Source of the DNA: Candidatus Woesearchaeota archaeon
GTDB lineage: Archaea; Nanobdellota; Nanobdellia; Woesearchaeales; GW2011-AR4
Direction of reading: 5' to 3'
DNA: 64,000 nucleotides
Assembly: GCA_002688775.1 (NCBI GenBank)
Contig: NZDH01000004.1
Span: 123,420-187,419, forward strand
The notes beneath the pieces were generated by a model that was not told the origin of the DNA, searched no databases, and saw nothing but the letters and a program-made list of their open reading frames with translations. Made by a program: the position numbers and the translations under genes. The first letter of the stretch is position 1. The number at the start of each line of letters is the position of its first letter. Positions 9,563-64,000 of the stretch are shown piece after piece.

Positions 9563-11299
9563 TCAAATCTTTAACTCCTTTTCCATCTGGCTTGTTAATT
9601 CTCCAAGTAATTTCTCATAATCCTTTACAAATTTCACTTCGCTTAACCTGTCTTTTGCTTTTGTAGTTATTATCTGCTGCAACCTCATGCCGCCATCAAG
9701 GGCTGCATTTGCGAGTTTTGAAAAGTGAAGAATTGATTTCATCATTTGGTATGTTTTCTTTGGTTCACAAAATGTGTCTATCTCATGGAACGCATTCTGC
9801 TGCAGTAAAACTTCCCTGATCAATCTGGCTACAAGCAAAGTGATCTGCTGTTTCTCAGGCAATGCATCTGAACCGACCAATTGGACGATTTCAAGCAATT
9901 TTTCCTCTTCCTGCAGGATTGTCATCATCTGTTCAACAAAATCATGCCAATCAGGTGCAATATTTTTTGCGAACCAAGGGTCAAGTGTATTTAAGTATAG
10001 AGAATATGAAGTAAGCCAATTTATTGAAGGGAAATGTCTTCTCTGGGCAAGTTTTGCATCCAAAGCCCAAAATACTTTTGTAACTCTCAAAGTGCTTTGC
10101 GTTACGGGCTCTGAAAAATCCCCTCCTGGTGGAGAGACAGCTCCAATAACACTGACGCTGCCTTCCTGTTTTGTTCCTAATGGTATTACACGACCTGCCC
10201 TTTCATAAAATTGTGCTAATCTTGTTGAAAGATAAGCAGGATAACCTTCTTCGCCAGGCATTTCCTCCAATCTTGAGGAAATTTCCCTCATTGCTTCTGC
10301 CCATCTTGATGTTGAGTCTGCCATCAACGCAACAGAGTAACCCATATCCCTGTAATATTCTGCTATTGTAATTCCTGTGTAAATGCTTGCTTCTCGCGCT
10401 GCAACTGGCATGTTTGAGGTATTTGCAATGAGCACTGTCCTGTTCATCAAAGGCTTGCCGCTTCTTGGATCAGTAAGTTCCGGGAATTCTGAAAGAACTT
10501 CTGTCATCTCGTTTCCACGCTCGCCACAGCCAACATAAACAATAATCTGGGCATCAGACCATTTTGCAAGCTGCTGCTGTGAAACTGTTTTTCCAGCTCC
10601 AAACGGACCAGGGATTGCTGCAACTCCTCCTTTTGCCAGCGGAAATAGTGCATCAAAAATTCTCTGGCCTGTAATCAACGGCAATTCTGGTTTTAGTTTA
10701 GAACTGACAGGCCTTGGAATCCTGACAGGCCAATTTTGCTTTAATCTCAGCTCAAACCCATTATCGAGTTTTCCTATTGCATCATTAACTGTAAATTTTC
10801 CTGACTTGATTTCTGTAATTTTGCCTTGTTGGTCTGGAGGAACCAAAATTTTATGGATTATTCCGGGATTTTCCTCAACTTCACCGATAATCTGGCCCGG
10901 AGAAACTTTTTCTCCGTTCTTAACAATAGCTTTGAAGTCCCATTTTTTTGTATGATCGAGACCAGGCGCATCAACTCCTCTTTTGATAAAATCACCCATC
11001 TGTTTTATCAGAACAGGCAAAGGTCTTTGAATGCCATCATAAATACTACTAAGCATTCCTGGACCAAGCTCAACACTTAATGGCTGGCCGGTATTCACAA
11101 CCGGTTCACCAGGTTTTATACCAGAAGTGTCTTCGTAAACCTGAATAATTGTCTTTTCGCCTTCAATCTGGATTACTTCGCCCATCAAGTTTTCATTTCC
11201 TACTCTGCAAACATCATACATTCTAGGCTTTATTCCTTTGGCTACAACAACCGGGCCTGCAATTCTGTATAAAACGCCTTTATCCATTTTATTCTTCAA
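9563..11299 (-). CDS. atpA: A/V-type ATP synthase catalytic subunit A
   Basis: Walker [10 protein letters not shown] and [10 protein letters not shown] motifs. No intein-sized insertion. The track start is TTG, and an ATG (MDKGVLY) lies at 11287. Confidence 0.97.
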
Positions 11300-15883: not shown

Positions 15884-15984
15884 GCGCCGGTAGCTCAGCT
15901 TGGATAGAGCGTCTGAATTCATTGACGAACCTCCTATTCTTGGGTGAGAGCAGAAGGTCGGGAGTTCGAATCTCCCCCGGCGCG
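15884..15984 (+). tRNA. Class-I tRNA with a 26-nt intervening sequence in the anticodon arm; anticodon unresolved (only TCA or TGA possible)
   Basis: Acceptor GCGCCGG/CCGGCGC, D arm GCTC-AGCTTGGATA-GAGC, variable AGGTC, T arm GGGAG-TTCGAAT-CTCCC. TATA-like TTTATAAA lies about 30 nt upstream. Confidence 0.8.
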
Positions 15985-44388: not shown

Positions 44389-44787
44389 TCATTTATAAAG
44401 CTTTCTTTCAACCAATTTGAGGTATTTTTTCTGCCTTAGTATAATAACCGAAGAGCCCTTGTCAAGCACTTTGTTTTTAAGTTCCATATCCTGAGTTGCA
44501 ATAATAGTATCTTTATCTAGGTTTTCCAATATCAATGAATCAACATATTGTTCATCGGATCTGATCATGCCTATATTTTTTGATTTGATCAGTTTAAGCG
44601 CTATCTGAGCTGCTTTTTTGTTTTTTCCCTTTTGGTTTGAGATTATTTTTTTTAATTCATTGATTGATGATTCAAAAACAAATAGTTTGTAATTGAAATT
44701 GCAGATTCTATTGAATTCTGAGAATATATCTACTTTGAATTGCATGGGGATTAATAGGAAGTTTGTGTCTAAGATTATTTTTTTCAT
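44389..44787 (-). CDS. PIN-domain nuclease (Fcf1/Utp24-like, COG1412-type)
   Basis: MKKIILDTNFLL...ATQDMELK carries the PIN acidic residues. I start at Met63 of the track ORF because the upstream part overlaps a structured RNA. Confidence 0.75.
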   Translation of the reverse strand: MKKIILDTNFLLIPMQFKVDIFSEFNRICNFNYKLFVFESSINELKKIISNQKGKNKKAAQIALKLIKSKNIGMIRSDEQYVDSLILENLDKDTIIATQDMELKNKVLDKGSSVIILRQKKYLKLVERKLYK

Positions 44788-44860
44788 TAAGATTGAGATT
44801 AAAGCTGTGGATATAAATATTTCTATTCTGTAAAATAAAATTGTAAAATATACATTTGTC

Positions 44861-44992
44861 AGAAAAATTCCAACAACAAAGGGTTCAAATACGGGTTTTC
44901 TTCGTGAAAACCCTATTCGCAAAGGAAAAATCCGAACTATGTAACGGATTTTCCCTCTGCACTCAATTTTCACCCATTGTTGGAATTTTTCT
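44861..44992 (+). ncRNA. Three-way-junction RNA, copy 1 (unclassified family; second copy at 63414-63546)
   Basis: Closing stem GAAAAATTCCAACAA/TTGTTGGAATTTTTC and hairpins GGGTTTTC/GAAAACCC and GGAAAAATCCG/CGGATTTTCC. Junction strands match copy 2 while the helices covary. 3' T-tract. Confidence 0.65.
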
Positions 44993-46565: not shown

Positions 46566-46944
46566 GGCAAGGGTTAGTACTTAGCTTCGGCAATGTGATT
46601 GCTGAGGAAAGTCCGCCCACTACAACCGCAAAATCGGTTGACGCTTTGCGGGACATTCGCTATCGCGAAGTCCCGAGTAGCCACTCACGGAAGTGAGCTC
46701 TAGAAAATAGAGGGCAACCACTCAGAAACGAGACCGCCTTAAAGGAGCATGATGTGGAGAAGGATTTGGTGACAAATCTGAGATAACCCACTGACATTCT
46801 TTTAGGAATGGGTGAAACGGTGAGTCCTGGCTGGTGCAAGTCAATGGTCTAGTACCAGACGCTTAGTTTAATGCTAAGACAGGCTATCGCAATGCAAATA
46901 TTGCACTTAGGGCCTGACAAAAGGCGGCTTACTCTAACCCTGCC
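46566..46944 (+). ncRNA. rnpB: RNase P RNA (archaeal type A-like)
   Basis: P1 GGCAAGGGTTAG.../...CTAACCCTGCC, CR-I GAGGAAAGTCCGCCC and the CR-V-like ACAAAAGGCGGCTTAC. GC-rich island with a TATA-like box about 30 nt upstream. Confidence 0.9.
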
Positions 46945-50088: not shown

Positions 50089-50199
50089 GACCGCGGGCGA
50101 GAATCGAACTCGCGCCAAGCGGATTTCAAAGCAAGATGACAACCCTAAGTTGCAACCAGCTACCACAACCGCTTATTCTACCATTAAACTACCGCAGTC
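50089..50199 (-). tRNA. tRNA-His (anticodon GTG) with encoded G-1 and a 39-nt intron after position 37
   Basis: Sense strand: G-1, ACTGCGG/CCGCGGT acceptor, anticodon stem AGCGG/CCGCT, loop TTGTGG|intron, T arm GCGAG-TTCGATT-CTCGC, discriminator C. Confidence 0.85.
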
Positions 50200-52801: not shown

Positions 52802-52909
52802 GCGGGGGTGGCAGAGCCTGGCCAAATGCGCAAATTCATGATAAATGGAGTGGATGGTTGAGGGCCTTGTCCCTTAGTGGGTGCGAGGGTTCGAATCCCT
52901 TCCCCCGCA
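52802..52909 (+). tRNA. tRNA-Leu (anticodon GAG) with a 22-nt intron at non-canonical position 29/30
   Basis: Class II tRNA. Acceptor GCGGGGG/CCCCCGC, variable arm TCCCTTAGTGGGTGC. Removing 52834-52855 yields CAAGG-TTGAGGG-CCTTG. Confidence 0.85.
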
Positions 52910-54348: not shown

Positions 54349-55278
54349 ATGAACTCGTATAGAAATCAAAAAATTTGTTTGAAAGAATTGTATTGGAATA
54401 AACATATGTCAACATCACAAATTGGAAGAATATATAATTGTAACGCTGAAACAATTCGCAGATATATGATTAAATTTGGAATTGATAGAAGAAAGTTACA
54501 TGAAAGAAAATATAAAATATCAAAGAAACAGTTAGAAAATTTGTATCTTAAAAAAAGATTATCTATTATAGAAATTGCTAGGAAATATGGCTGTTCTCAA
54601 TGGGTAATTTGGTCTCTACTTAGATACCATAGGATAAGAGCAAGAGGCACTAATGATTATCATTCATGGAAGGCCCCTGCTAATCAAATTAAGCCATCTT
54701 TAGAGGTTACTTCAACTCTTGCGTACGTTATAGGTGTTATTTTAGGAGATGGTTGGGTTTACAAAAGAGGCTATTGGTATACTATAGGTTTAGAAGCATT
54801 AGATAAAAAATTTTGTGAAAGTTTTTACCATGCGTTAAAGCAATTGAAAATTAATCCTTCAATTTTTCATAGTAGAAACTATTGGAGAGTTGTATGTTCC
54901 TCAAAATTATTTTATATATGGTTCAAATCTTTAGATTTTAATAAAATAAAGGAAATTTCCGAAAAATATCCTATAGATTTCTTAAGAGGTTTCTATGAAA
55001 GCGAAGGAAATTTCTCTACTTATAAAAGTAAGAAATATTTTTTTATAACATACAAAATAACTATTGTGAATACTGATAAAAAACTTATCGATTTAGTAAA
55101 ATTTTTATTAGATAGATTAGGTTTCCATCCTACATATCATAAGAGAAATCAGTTAAAATCAAATTGGAAGCCACTTTGGGCTTTAACTTTGTGTAGAAAA
55201 TTGGAGGTTAAGCAATTCATTCAATTGATAAAACCCTGTATCAAAACTGGAGAGAGAAGGCGCAGTAGAAACATTTAA
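54349..55278 (+). mobile_element. Free-standing LAGLIDADG homing-endonuclease-like gene with two N-terminal HTH repeats
   Basis: Two LAGLIDADG motifs (LAYVIGVILGDGW and FLRGFYESEGNF). Duplicated N-terminal HTH units of about 45 aa. Inserted between rps9 and rpoN. Confidence 0.8.
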
Positions 55279-62250: not shown

Positions 62251-63381
62251 ATGAAATACAAAATCGCTGTTTTTGCAGGAGATGGTGTAGGGCCTGAGCT
62301 GATAGATGAAGGCATCAAGGTAATTGAAAAAGCAGCTGAGCTTGACAAGTTTGAGATTGAATGGGTGAAATATCCACATGGTGCAGAGCATTTCAGTGAA
62401 ACAAAGGAATCGCTGTCGAATAAAGCCTTGAAGGAGATAAAAGATTCATGCAAATCAGTTTATTGCGGCACATTCGATAATTCTAAAAACGGAAATGCTG
62501 CTGAAAATAATGTCTCATCTGCCATAAAAAATTATTTCGACCAGTTTGTGAGCCTGAGACCTATAAGACTACTTCCAAATGTGCAAAGCCCGCTTAACGG
62601 CAAAACAGACAAGGAGATTGATTTTACTGTAATCAGGGAGAATACAGAGGATTTCTATAGCGGGATCAACGGCAGAGTGAAGAACGGCAAGAATAAGCAT
62701 CAGTTTGATTTGAACAATAGCACATTGAAAGCTAAATTCGGGCTGAATGTGGAGGCAAAAGGCGGCGAGATGGCCTATCAGATAGGTGTTTTGAGTAAAA
62801 AGGGGTGTGAAAGGGTCATCAAGTTCGCTTTCGAATATGCAAAAAGCAAGAACAAGAAAAAAATTGCGGCTGTCGACAAGGCAAATATGATCGAATGCTA
62901 CGATTTTTGGAGGGAAAATGTCAATAAAGTTTCAAAAGGCTATGGCGACATCAAATGTGAATTTGAGTTTATTGATGCAGCTGTGATGAATTTCATAAGG
63001 CAGCCCGAGAAATATGAAGTCATAATCGCCCCTAACATGTTCGGGGATATTTTAGGTGATTTAGGGACAGTGATGCAGGGAAGTCTGGCTGTTGCAGCAA
63101 GAGGAAATATCAATCCAGGGGGAATTTCAATGTTCGAGCCTGTCCATGGGAGCGCTCCCGGACTAAAAGAAAAAGGTGTTGTAAATCCGATCGCAACTAT
63201 CTGGGCAGGGGCGATGATGCTCGACAACATAGGGCAGCAAAAATCAGCTGACCTGATGATAAAGTCCATTGAATATGTGCTAAAGGGAGGCAAAACGATG
63301 ACTCTGGATCTGGGCGGCAACAACTCGACATCTGAGATGGGAGATGCAATCAAAGATAAATTTATTGAATTGCACGATTGA
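62251..63381 (+). CDS. Isocitrate/isopropylmalate/tartrate dehydrogenase family protein
   Basis: KIAVFAGDGVGPE, IRENTEDFYSG, APNMFGDILGDL and EPVHGSAP motifs. Substrate not assignable from sequence alone. Confidence 0.85.
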   Translation: MKYKIAVFAGDGVGPELIDEGIKVIEKAAELDKFEIEWVKYPHGAEHFSETKESLSNKALKEIKDSCKSVYCGTFDNSKNGNAAENNVSSAIKNYFDQFVSLRPIRLLPNVQSPLNGKTDKEIDFTVIRENTEDFYSGINGRVKNGKNKHQFDLNNSTLKAKFGLNVEAKGGEMAYQIGVLSKKGCERVIKFAFEYAKSKNKKKIAAVDKANMIECYDFWRENVNKVSKGYGDIKCEFEFIDAAVMNFIRQPEKYEVIIAPNMFGDILGDLGTVMQGSLAVAARGNINPGGISMFEPVHGSAPGLKEKGVVNPIATIWAGAMMLDNIGQQKSADLMIKSIEYVLKGGKTMTLDLGGNNSTSEMGDAIKDKFIELHD

Positions 63382-63413
63382 AAAAGAGTTGTTTTGATAA
63401 TTATATCCTATTT

Positions 63414-63546
63414 AGAAAGATAATAACAACAAGGGATTCAAACACGGCTTTTCTTGGTGAAAAGCCTATTCGCAAAGTAAATTTCCACACTGTGTATGGA
63501 AATTTACTCTGCACTCAATTTTCATCCAGGTTGTTACCTTTTCTTC
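63414..63546 (+). ncRNA. Three-way-junction RNA, copy 2 (same family as 44861-44992)
   Basis: Hairpins GGCTTTTC/GAAAAGCC and GTAAATTTCCA/TGGAAATTTAC with stem TAACAAC/GTTGTTA. The junction strands TATTCGCAAAG and CTCTGCACTCAATTTTCA match copy 1 exactly. Confidence 0.65.
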
Positions 63547-63607
63547 GAAGTCTAAAACAAATGCGAAGATACATATATTTAAATACGAAATTTGATTCTA
63601 TTTCTAT

Positions 63608-64000
63608 ATGAAACTTGATAAAATCCTGGTTGTGTATACCAATCCAACAACCAATGAGTACAGATTGACACTGGGTAAAGTCAAGAAAGTACTGAAAAAA
63701 TACAGGGCTAAGTATAATCTTGCTAATAGGGACAAGCTTAAAGATATCCAGTTTGAAAACCATGACCTGGTGATTGCTGTTGGGGGAGATGGGACTTTCT
63801 TAAGAGCTGCCCAGTTTGTCAAAAATCAGCTTATATTAGGAGTGAATGCAGATGTCAAGAACAAAGAAGGCTTTTTTATGCAGAGCGATAAAAAAAATTT
63901 TGAAGCCAGATTAAGAAAGATAATCAAGAACAAATTCAAGATAAAAAAGCTGCATAGGCTGGAAGCTTACATAAACAATAAGAAAATCGAGAATCCTGCG
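63608..64000 (+). CDS. nadK: NAD kinase (5' part, runs off the window; not in the ORF track)
   Basis: My translation is MKLDKILVVYTNP...HDLVIAVGGDGTFLRAAQF, with the GGDGT motif. A TATA-like box lies about 25 nt upstream. Confidence 0.8.
   Translation, partial: MKLDKILVVYTNPTTNEYRLTLGKVKKVLKKYRAKYNLANRDKLKDIQFENHDLVIAVGGDGTFLRAAQFVKNQLILGVNADVKNKEGFFMQSDKKNFEARLRKIIKNKFKIKKLHRLEAYINNKKIENPA

Follow-up and report, generated by a model that had tools for sequence, protein, structure and literature searches.

Bacteria are well known to carry structured, self-propagating intergenic repeats such as REP/REPIN, ERIC and Correia, as well as recombination sites made of folded DNA, such as attC. To our knowledge there are practically no descriptions of such repeats and sites from archaea, and certainly not from DPANN episymbionts with their streamlined genomes. 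We know of REPIN-RAYT systems only from bacteria, and our literature search found no description of an archaeal one; integrons have reportedly been found in archaea by Ghaly et al. The REP/REPIN repeats that go with RAYT are bacterial and form inverted doublets (PMC3116915). Here we describe a family of structured repeats in 64,000 nucleotides (nt) of DNA from a Candidatus Woesearchaeota archaeon (positions 123420-187419 of contig NZDH01000004.1, C3 below). This whole stretch is called the window, and positions given without a contig are those of the window. The assembly (GCA_002688775.1, G000 below) comprises 1.04 Mb in 19 contigs with 35.7% GC and is 73% complete. The window carries two copies of a three-way-junction element:

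44861-44992, minus strand: copy 1, between divergent PIN and THUMP-type genes; covariance model 142.3 bits
63414-63546, minus strand (the folded strand): copy 2; covariance model 135.7 bits, R2 model 129.7 bits

Copy 2, placed by the covariance model at 63415-63544 (C3:186834-186963), is a genuine non-coding member of a structured repeat family folded on the minus strand, and it was inserted in this lineage into the spacer between an isocitrate/isopropylmalate dehydrogenase-like gene (IDH) and the NAD kinase gene (NADK). How the family spreads is a matter of more tentative interpretation, which is weighed below.

The repeat family and the fold of its minus strand

A sequence-only reading of the window had placed copy 2 in the same family as copy 1, and the alignment bears this out with a mean column identity of 82% over ~200 columns. 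The exact 18-mer CTCTGCACTCAATTTTCA is common to the two copies and is found nowhere else in the window (0.12 occurrences expected; two sites in 0/100 shuffles). BLAST and a covariance model built from the genome's own copies gave 13 members on nine contigs: 10 full copies (120-145 bits), one partial copy on contig C12 and two members of a third subfamily, whose long arm is rich in GC. Among 61 related genomes, 29 contained the element with well over 100 matches; within the genus 24/37 species have it, with 1-20 copies each, and so do 5/24 other families of the order. A broader model with lax filters recovered all 13 own copies and found none in 13 congeneric genomes, four of which are at least 90% complete. 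Public genomes with the core pattern of the element are Woesearchaeota/Nanoarchaeota-type DPANN metagenome-assembled genomes (MAGs), mainly from groundwater, together with a few bins that apparently carry wrong labels.

Searches against Rfam 15 gave no family at gathering threshold at the locus, and at E < 10 only chance miRNA-like hairpins of 11-18 bits; for a full pair of elements and for the GC-rich subfamily no score exceeded 25 bits, where the thresholds are 36-114. A divergent 5S rRNA is ruled out, since the canonical 5S gene lies on another contig (C14:21765-21880, 52.7 bits) and no RF00001 match was seen at the locus even at E < 10. Known ribozymes and riboswitches were rejected on the lack of an Rfam match, and a hammerhead core, compared by eye with the covarying junction, did not fit. 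No description of this family was found in the literature, and no copy in IMG/VR (searched by pattern) or in phage and plasmid collections. On these searches the family appears to be a so far undescribed repeat of Woesearchaeota-type DPANN archaea.

The three-way junction that the sequence-only reading had proposed was upheld by strong covariation. In a set of 41 members from about 30 genomes, 93.4% of pairs are standard, and 39/45 pairs have changed on both sides; the observed values were reached by 0/500 shuffles. As a control, partners were slid by 1-3 columns, and pairing went down to 38-52%. The z-scores of the fold against shuffled sequences were -6.0 (copy 2) and -8.0 (copy 1) for the plus strand, and -8.1 and -9.2, respectively, for the minus strand. 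The helices of copy 2 are as follows (mismatches are named as they stand on the plus strand):

63414-63430: first strand of the outer stem P1 (63414-63419 and 63424-63430), paired with 63530-63536 and 63539-63544
63530-63544: partner strand of P1, from the folds of copy 2 and the family covariation
63434-63439: P1b; 63434-63437 pair with 63524-63527, followed by a tandem U.C/C.U mismatch of 63438-63439 versus 63522-63523
63446-63466: P2 hairpin of 8 bp with a 5-nt loop
63469-63517: long arm P3, with junction-proximal covarying pairs 63469-63517 and 63472-63514

P1 shows double-sided change at all 15 pairs across the family; in copy 2 it is partly degenerate, with an AUAA/CC internal loop. The tandem mismatch of P1b reads G.A/A.G on the minus strand, and other subfamilies have G-C/C-G at the same place (columns 25/222: U.C in 22 versus G-C in 13; columns 26/221: C.U in 23 versus C-G in 14). 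P2 is 97.8% paired with compensatory change in 6/8 pairs; its third pair occurs as G-C, A-U, C-G and U-A. P3 contains invariant tandem mismatches (U.C/C.U, 63470-63471 versus 63515-63516) that are G.A/A.G on the minus strand, a CA bulge at 63512-63513 (UG in the folded strand) and, at 63475/63509, an A.C that hardly varies and is G.U on the minus strand (column 110/207: A.C 33, G-C 4). Junction-proximal pairs predicted from ten own copies covary in the larger set (103-215: UA 29, CG 11; 107-212: GC 23, AU 12, CG 5), and the A5/U5 tract of P3 was found flipped with the loop sequence unchanged. In two very similar units (from genomes G001 and G022) the internal differences are almost all compensatory, including matched 1-nt deletions in both strands of P2.

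Two further structural features were considered and rejected. In the consensus of a K-turn, which is bound by L7Ae, the bulged strand has three unpaired nucleotides directly 5' of its tandem G.A pairs; the minus strand of the element instead has two, which lie 3' of the tandem G.A and are separated from them by one Watson-Crick pair. A pseudoknot of the J1/2 strand with the P3 loop was compatible in just 6/10 own copies.

The sequence-only reading had weakly preferred the plus strand as the transcribed one, on account of one G.U pair that copy 2 has in its outer stem. That pair is real (G63419.U63539), but the family-wide evidence favours the minus strand. The folding energy is lower in the minus sense in 87/88 distinct members, by 8.4 kcal/mol on average (Wilcoxon p = 4e-16), and DNA parameters point in the same direction (minus in 83 versus plus in 4). 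The minimum free energy is -51.7 (minus) versus -40.0 kcal/mol (plus) for copy 2 and -61.0 versus -49.3 kcal/mol for copy 1. Read on the plus strand, the helices hold 29 G.U versus 44 A.C; in addition there are the near-invariant A.C (33/41) and two U.C/C.U tandem mismatches. On the minus strand the counts become 77 G.U versus 29 A.C, the near-invariant A.C turns into a fixed G.U and the tandem mismatches into sheared G.A/A.G. This asymmetry indicates that a single strand (RNA or single-stranded DNA) is selected and not a double-stranded cruciform. A strand-specific fold with conserved G.A and G.U pairs must be read by some protein.

Insertion site, reading frames and arrangement of the copies

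The spacer that holds copy 2 is bordered and overlapped by the following features:

62251-63381, plus strand: IDH, 376 amino acids (aa), which we take to be isocitrate/isopropylmalate dehydrogenase-like from sequence motifs; its stop lies 33 nt before copy 2
63378-63611, plus strand: spurious open reading frame (ORF) of 77 aa that covers the whole IDH-NADK spacer; no Pfam match
63515-63763, minus strand: spurious shadow ORF of 82 aa, antisense to the conserved NADK start; no Pfam match
63608-64000, plus strand: NADK with a GGDGT motif, cut by the window end; its start lies 62 nt past copy 2

The order IDH-NADK is kept in five relatives or metagenome contigs, whose element-free spacers measure 46, 65, 70, 72 and 98 nt. 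The spacer in this genome is 226 nt long, and 95 nt after removal of the element. None of 29 NADK loci of the genus and none of the 14 closest metagenome IDH loci carries the element (IDH orthologues in relatives are 57-75% identical, and an NADK orthologue is present in 37/41 genomes of the genus). The empty sites are too diverged for the exact ends, or any target duplication, to be mapped at the focal site. A TATA-like box at ~63577-63590 is probably the NADK promoter, and an equivalent box is found in the element-free spacers of the relatives. Elsewhere, cores more than 90% identical occur in non-syntenic contexts, in species whose NADK N-termini are 53-60% identical to that of this genome.

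The ORFs that the sequence-only reading named as spurious do exist, as does the PIN ORF at copy 1 (44389-44973, minus strand, 194 aa), and its judgement of them was confirmed. Substitutions relative to copy 2 number 84/116/78 at codon positions 1/2/3 and show no third-position bias. Of 30 members, 13 have no stop in the best anchored frame, no frame is open family-wide, and length differences between copies are not multiples of three. The 77-aa plus-strand ORF cannot exist in the relatives because their IDH-NADK spacers are only 46-98 nt long. Although both small ORFs are open in this genome, the idea that the region encodes small proteins (the 77-aa plus-strand ORF or the 82-aa minus-strand ORF) is on these counts effectively refuted. 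In the PIN ORF, PIN_9 matches only residues 66-182, and the extension across copy 1 therefore lies outside the domain; the ORF is over-extended, with its true start likely at the ATG at 44787 (MKKIILDTNFLL), 74 nt from copy 1. Automated annotation hides the copies under hypothetical ORFs and a false 62-aa PIN extension; a covariance model of the family would clear such false calls in hundreds of MAGs.

The 13 own copies all lie between genes, and these neighbours have no function in common (PIN, PCMT, uL16, Nop5, transporter, RFC, LipA and NADK). Divergent spacers are over-represented among 45 classifiable units (16) and convergent ones are few (4); for singletons between tandem genes the orientation was 10 versus 5, which is not significant. 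A riboswitch or leader was rejected on the incoherence of the neighbour genes and the lack of a fixed orientation in tandem regions. An apparent preference for the minus sense 5' of a gene of the same direction (10/12 own copies) vanished when divergent spacers were left out (3 versus 2 among own copies, 5 versus 10 in the larger set).

Adjacent pairs account for 38/78 members in the named genomes. All 19 pairs are arranged as plus followed by minus in the orientation of the model, and the gap within a pair ranges from -25 to +49 nt. The paired folded strands abut or overlap at their 5' ends, one P1 strand is often common to both, and several pairs fold as one long hairpin. A pair usually combines two subfamilies; in this genome two pairs occur, at C10 and C18. 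The elements that score highest on the model are mostly singletons with a complete P1, and members of pairs often have no P1 of their own. Tandem pairs of the same orientation were limited to a single case (L104/L254). This fixed architecture limits the possible mechanisms of spread, and it leaves no upstream promoter space, which is hard to square with independent minus-strand RNA genes.

Three 'long' copies of different subfamilies carry a separate mobile repeat of ~55 nt with two hairpins (TGTCGG...CGACA), in each case at exactly the same place in the P3 loop; this suggests target specificity for the P3 loop or exchange between copies. Its occurrences in this genome, the nested ones being outside the window, are:

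C3:89924-89976, C7:52563-52617 and C12:218-290: nested copies of the 55-nt repeat
C1:31993-32047, C12:2271-2325 and C3:118224-118261: free copies of the 55-nt repeat

Several side observations were made on the copies and on the genome. Copies of the C1 type (L011, L013, L017 and G000:C1:320-365) have in common a flank of ~45 nt with a small covarying hairpin, ACCUAAAGGU / GCCUAAAGGC, plus UCUUCGAGAAA; on their other side, ~20 nt off, is a short conserved ORF-like stretch, M-x-x-K-I-I-I-E-K. An 'orthologous' C1-type locus between species was rejected, as the neighbour genes are not in common. A palindrome-centred motif, TTTCCGAGCATGCTCAAAAAC(C), in some cases followed by CGGGACAAAATTGTCTGTTGGTTT, is present at many intergenic sites of this genome (C18:9044, C18:38964, C2:40542, C4:3917, C4:30829, C11:52204, C14:12851, C1:69128 and C10:27929) and resembles a further family of repeats or a widely used regulatory site. 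The window also contains, at 46571-46940 (plus strand, 99.4 bits), an archaeal RNase P RNA that has large insertions. Three tRNA genes, at 15884-15984 (plus strand), 50089-50198 (minus strand) and 52802-52909 (plus strand), have long introns of ~35-42 nt in or near the anticodon loop.

Candidate enzymes and rival explanations

In six genomes a tyrosine recombinase gene (Phage_integrase, E = 4.6e-45; Pfam domains Phage_integrase and SAM-like N-terminal) lies 135-1974 nt from an element. In all six the element is upstream of the recombinase gene, and its folded strand is co-directional with the gene. A tree of 51 recombinases of the genus contains a well-supported clade of seven (clade IV) that is found in element-bearing genomes only; 4/7 genes of this clade are adjacent to an element, versus 2/44 of the other recombinase genes. 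Clade IV adjoins ftsZ or parA in closely related species, a conserved chromosomal context, and the six adjacencies probably represent two to three independent events. The DNA between recombinase and element differs among relatives (214 nt; ~680 nt; ~680 nt plus a second element; 1974 nt with two ORFs), which as a lead only is reminiscent of an integron platform.

Further observations concern these recombinases. This genome has two recombinase genes, C3:15100-15912 and C18:53865-54722. A distinct clade stands directly beside ftsZ and an FKBP-type isomerase gene in three species, at L259, L254 and L260 (G001:C8, G021:C16 and G029:C49), and beside a parA-like gene in this genome (C18:51300-55067). 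The ftsZ/parA-side enzyme may be the true dimer-resolution (XerA-like) recombinase, in which case the more widespread clade would be something else. A ~95-nt repeat is found both at C1:1-95, by the C1 copy, where it coincides exactly with the break of contig C1, and at C18:~54790-54890, on the upstream side of the clade-IV recombinase gene C18:53865-54722 at a distance of 100 nt. It could be an att-like repeat or an assembly junction. At L025/L259 (G001:C8:1-250) and L027/L262 (G022:C36:~9640-9870) the three-way junction lies inside an extra outer inverted repeat, TTTTCTTTAGTTTGAAATGCAG ... CTGCATTTGCCAAATGAACTAAAGAAAA, and the L025/L027 unit is ~227 nt long with sharp similarity boundaries. 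As evidence of mobility these sharp ends weigh less than they seemed to at first, as both units are upstream of the same recombinase and a gene insertion beside the unit can account for the difference.

Tentatively, and at somewhat less than an even chance, we read the element as a non-autonomous repeat that spreads through a folded single strand in a REPIN- or attC-like manner. The element behaves as if mobile, and several results favour this reading: the covarying fold with its strand asymmetry, copy numbers of 0-20 among congeneric species, the five element-free IDH-NADK spacers, the near-identical cores in non-syntenic contexts, the intergenic copies with unrelated neighbours and no preferred orientation, the uniform geometry of the inverted pairs, the nested 55-nt repeat, and the T5 runs and lack of a fixed promoter described below. 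Copy 2 is one member of a dispersed, non-coding family that entered the IDH-NADK spacer in this lineage. What defines the family is one DNA strand (the minus strand of the window at copy 2), or its transcript, that folds into a variable P1/P1b, the 8-bp P2 and the long P3 with tandem G.A, 2-nt bulge and fixed G.U, and this folded single strand may be what the propagation machinery recognises. By analogy, REP/REPIN hairpins with RAYT, the ends of IS200/IS605 and integron attC bottom strands with IntI might be regarded as parallels. The covariation might be a record of selection on the lineages that keep spreading. We infer a mobility mechanism with a single-stranded DNA intermediate, and the tyrosine recombinase as a candidate enzyme. 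DPANN genomes are streamlined, so that every non-coding base is unexpected, and the family may be a clean case in which very strong covariation does not signal an RNA gene.

A number of results weigh against a repeat of this kind. No recurrent target-site duplication or sharply defined common terminus was found at the flanks of 36 members, and no strain-level empty allele, excision product or circle junction was seen, the best metagenome relative having 73-75% protein identity. The Y1 transposase (IS200/IS605 TnpA, PF01797) was rejected as mobiliser because it does not correlate with copy number; no PF01797 match was found in this genome (13 copies), G018 (20 copies) or G027 (13 copies). TnpB (PF07282) was likewise rejected, being present in just 6/61 genomes and without correlation with copy number. 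No arrangement of a plus unit, an ORF and a minus unit with a transposase was found, in a search that left out DDE transposases and reverse transcriptases. The inverted repeat of P1 covaries but is variable between subfamilies and is absent in about one quarter of the matches (model positions 16-113 only), unlike the inverted repeats bound by transposases. Singletons are intact and top-scoring and decayed fragments are few, which fits selection in place on each copy, as for RNA genes. The conserved unpaired junction bases, the tandem G.A and the G.U are classic RNA features. As to the recombinases, the conserved ftsZ/parA context of clade IV means that its adjacencies are not independent and may go back to one ancestral insertion, and recombinases of other clades also occur in element-free genomes.

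Some of the same results would suit a family of multicopy small structured RNA genes of ~100-130 nt on the minus strand, kept in place for, e.g., a protein-binding or regulatory role and lost or duplicated by species. This explanation, the main rival, is possible, if rather doubtful. It would account for the strong covariation, for unpaired junction bases that are more conserved than the stems (1.47 versus 2.39 substitutions per column), for the fixed G.U and tandem G.A on one strand only, and for the intact singletons with few decayed fragments; a closing stem followed by a U-run also resembles an RNA 3' end. The element is, however, absent from 13/37 congeneric species and therefore not essential, its presence at the focal locus is polymorphic, and the abutting or overlapping 5' ends of the pairs leave no promoter room. 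Runs of T5 or longer, which are archaeal termination signals, lie within the folded strand in 22/36 elements, and a promoter/terminator scan of the elements found no promoter at a fixed distance; both results count against a dedicated transcript. A weak excess of TATA-like boxes is seen 20-35 nt from the edges of the element, but these boxes are explained by the flanking genes; the flank motif of copy 1, C10, C18 and L117 is best explained as TATA promoters of the neighbour genes. Unlikely, in our estimate, is a bolder form of the folded-strand repeat, namely an undescribed structure-specific mobile DNA in which a plain tyrosine recombinase of the Xer type reads three-way-junction modules of 100-130 nt in the form of folded single-stranded DNA and the fixed inverted doublet is moved. 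If true, it would be an archaeal system that works like attC/IntI or REPIN/RAYT from different parts.

The recombinase adjacencies can also be read as integron-like sites, in which an attC-like folded bottom strand would serve an Xer-type recombinase, gene-sized DNA would be gained or lost, and the dispersed copies would be solitary attC sites. The six genomes show intI/attC bottom-strand geometry at 135-1974 nt, close relatives differ in the DNA that separates recombinase and element, the fold is one-stranded with a length (100-133 nt) within the attC range, and the best-conserved part of P1 reads ...AAC / GTT.... We hold this to be quite unlikely: most copies are far from recombinases and form no same-orientation arrays, the focal insertion carries no ORF (95 nt of residual spacer versus 46-98 nt at empty sites), inverted pairs are not an integron feature, and the clade-IV context may reflect just two to three events, with other clades in element-free genomes. 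Very improbable is a host-domesticated cis element, i.e., a bidirectional terminator, an insulator or a transcript-stabilising hairpin like some REP/BIME/ERIC sequences. Every copy is intergenic and within tens of nt of gene ends or promoters, several copies (copy 2 and those on C2 and C7) lie between co-directional genes, and the long closing stem with A- and T-runs on both strands is similar to a bidirectional terminator. Yet convergent spacers, which would need terminators most, are under-represented (4/45) and divergent promoter regions over-represented (16/45), the relatives manage without the element at the same loci, and a conserved three-way junction with invariant bases is kept where a simple hairpin would do.

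Comparison with described systems

The likeness to 5S rRNA is in topology only: both have ~120-130 nt and a three-way junction with a closing helix, one long and one shorter arm. The element differs in being multicopy, patchy and low in GC, with no RF00001 match. With Correia/NEMIS, ERIC/IRU, BOX and RUP, it has in common an intergenic unit of ~100-150 nt with terminal inverted repeats that folds when transcribed, insertion polymorphism and promoter proximity. In contrast to these repeats, no target-site duplication and no related autonomous insertion sequence was found for the element, its terminal stem is variable or absent, and it has extensive covariation of the internal helices together with a marked single-strand asymmetry. 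Among the classical features of miniature inverted-repeat transposable elements, insertion polymorphism was found; a target-site duplication and a Y1 or TnpB transposase that tracks the element were not.

Integron attC sites with IntI are similar in the one-strand fold, the poor sequence conservation of the stems and the length range, and in some genomes a tyrosine recombinase is nearby, with the folded strand on its coding strand; gene content beside the sites is variable. The element differs in that it forms no same-orientation cassette arrays and is mostly solitary or in inverted pairs, in that the focal insertion carries no ORF and the junction sequence is strongly conserved, and in that the recombinases look plain Xer-type in housekeeping contexts. 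REPINs resemble the element as short non-coding intergenic repeats with over-represented inverted doublets that are able to form a long hairpin in single-stranded DNA or mRNA, with conservation of structure rather than sequence, and with persistence in lineages at copy numbers that vary among relatives. The units of the element are three-way junctions of 100-133 nt with conserved junction bases, whereas those of REPINs are palindromes of 20-60 nt; this and other high-copy genomes have no Y1/RAYT gene; and singletons of the element are intact and top-scoring, whereas REPIN singletons are decayed.

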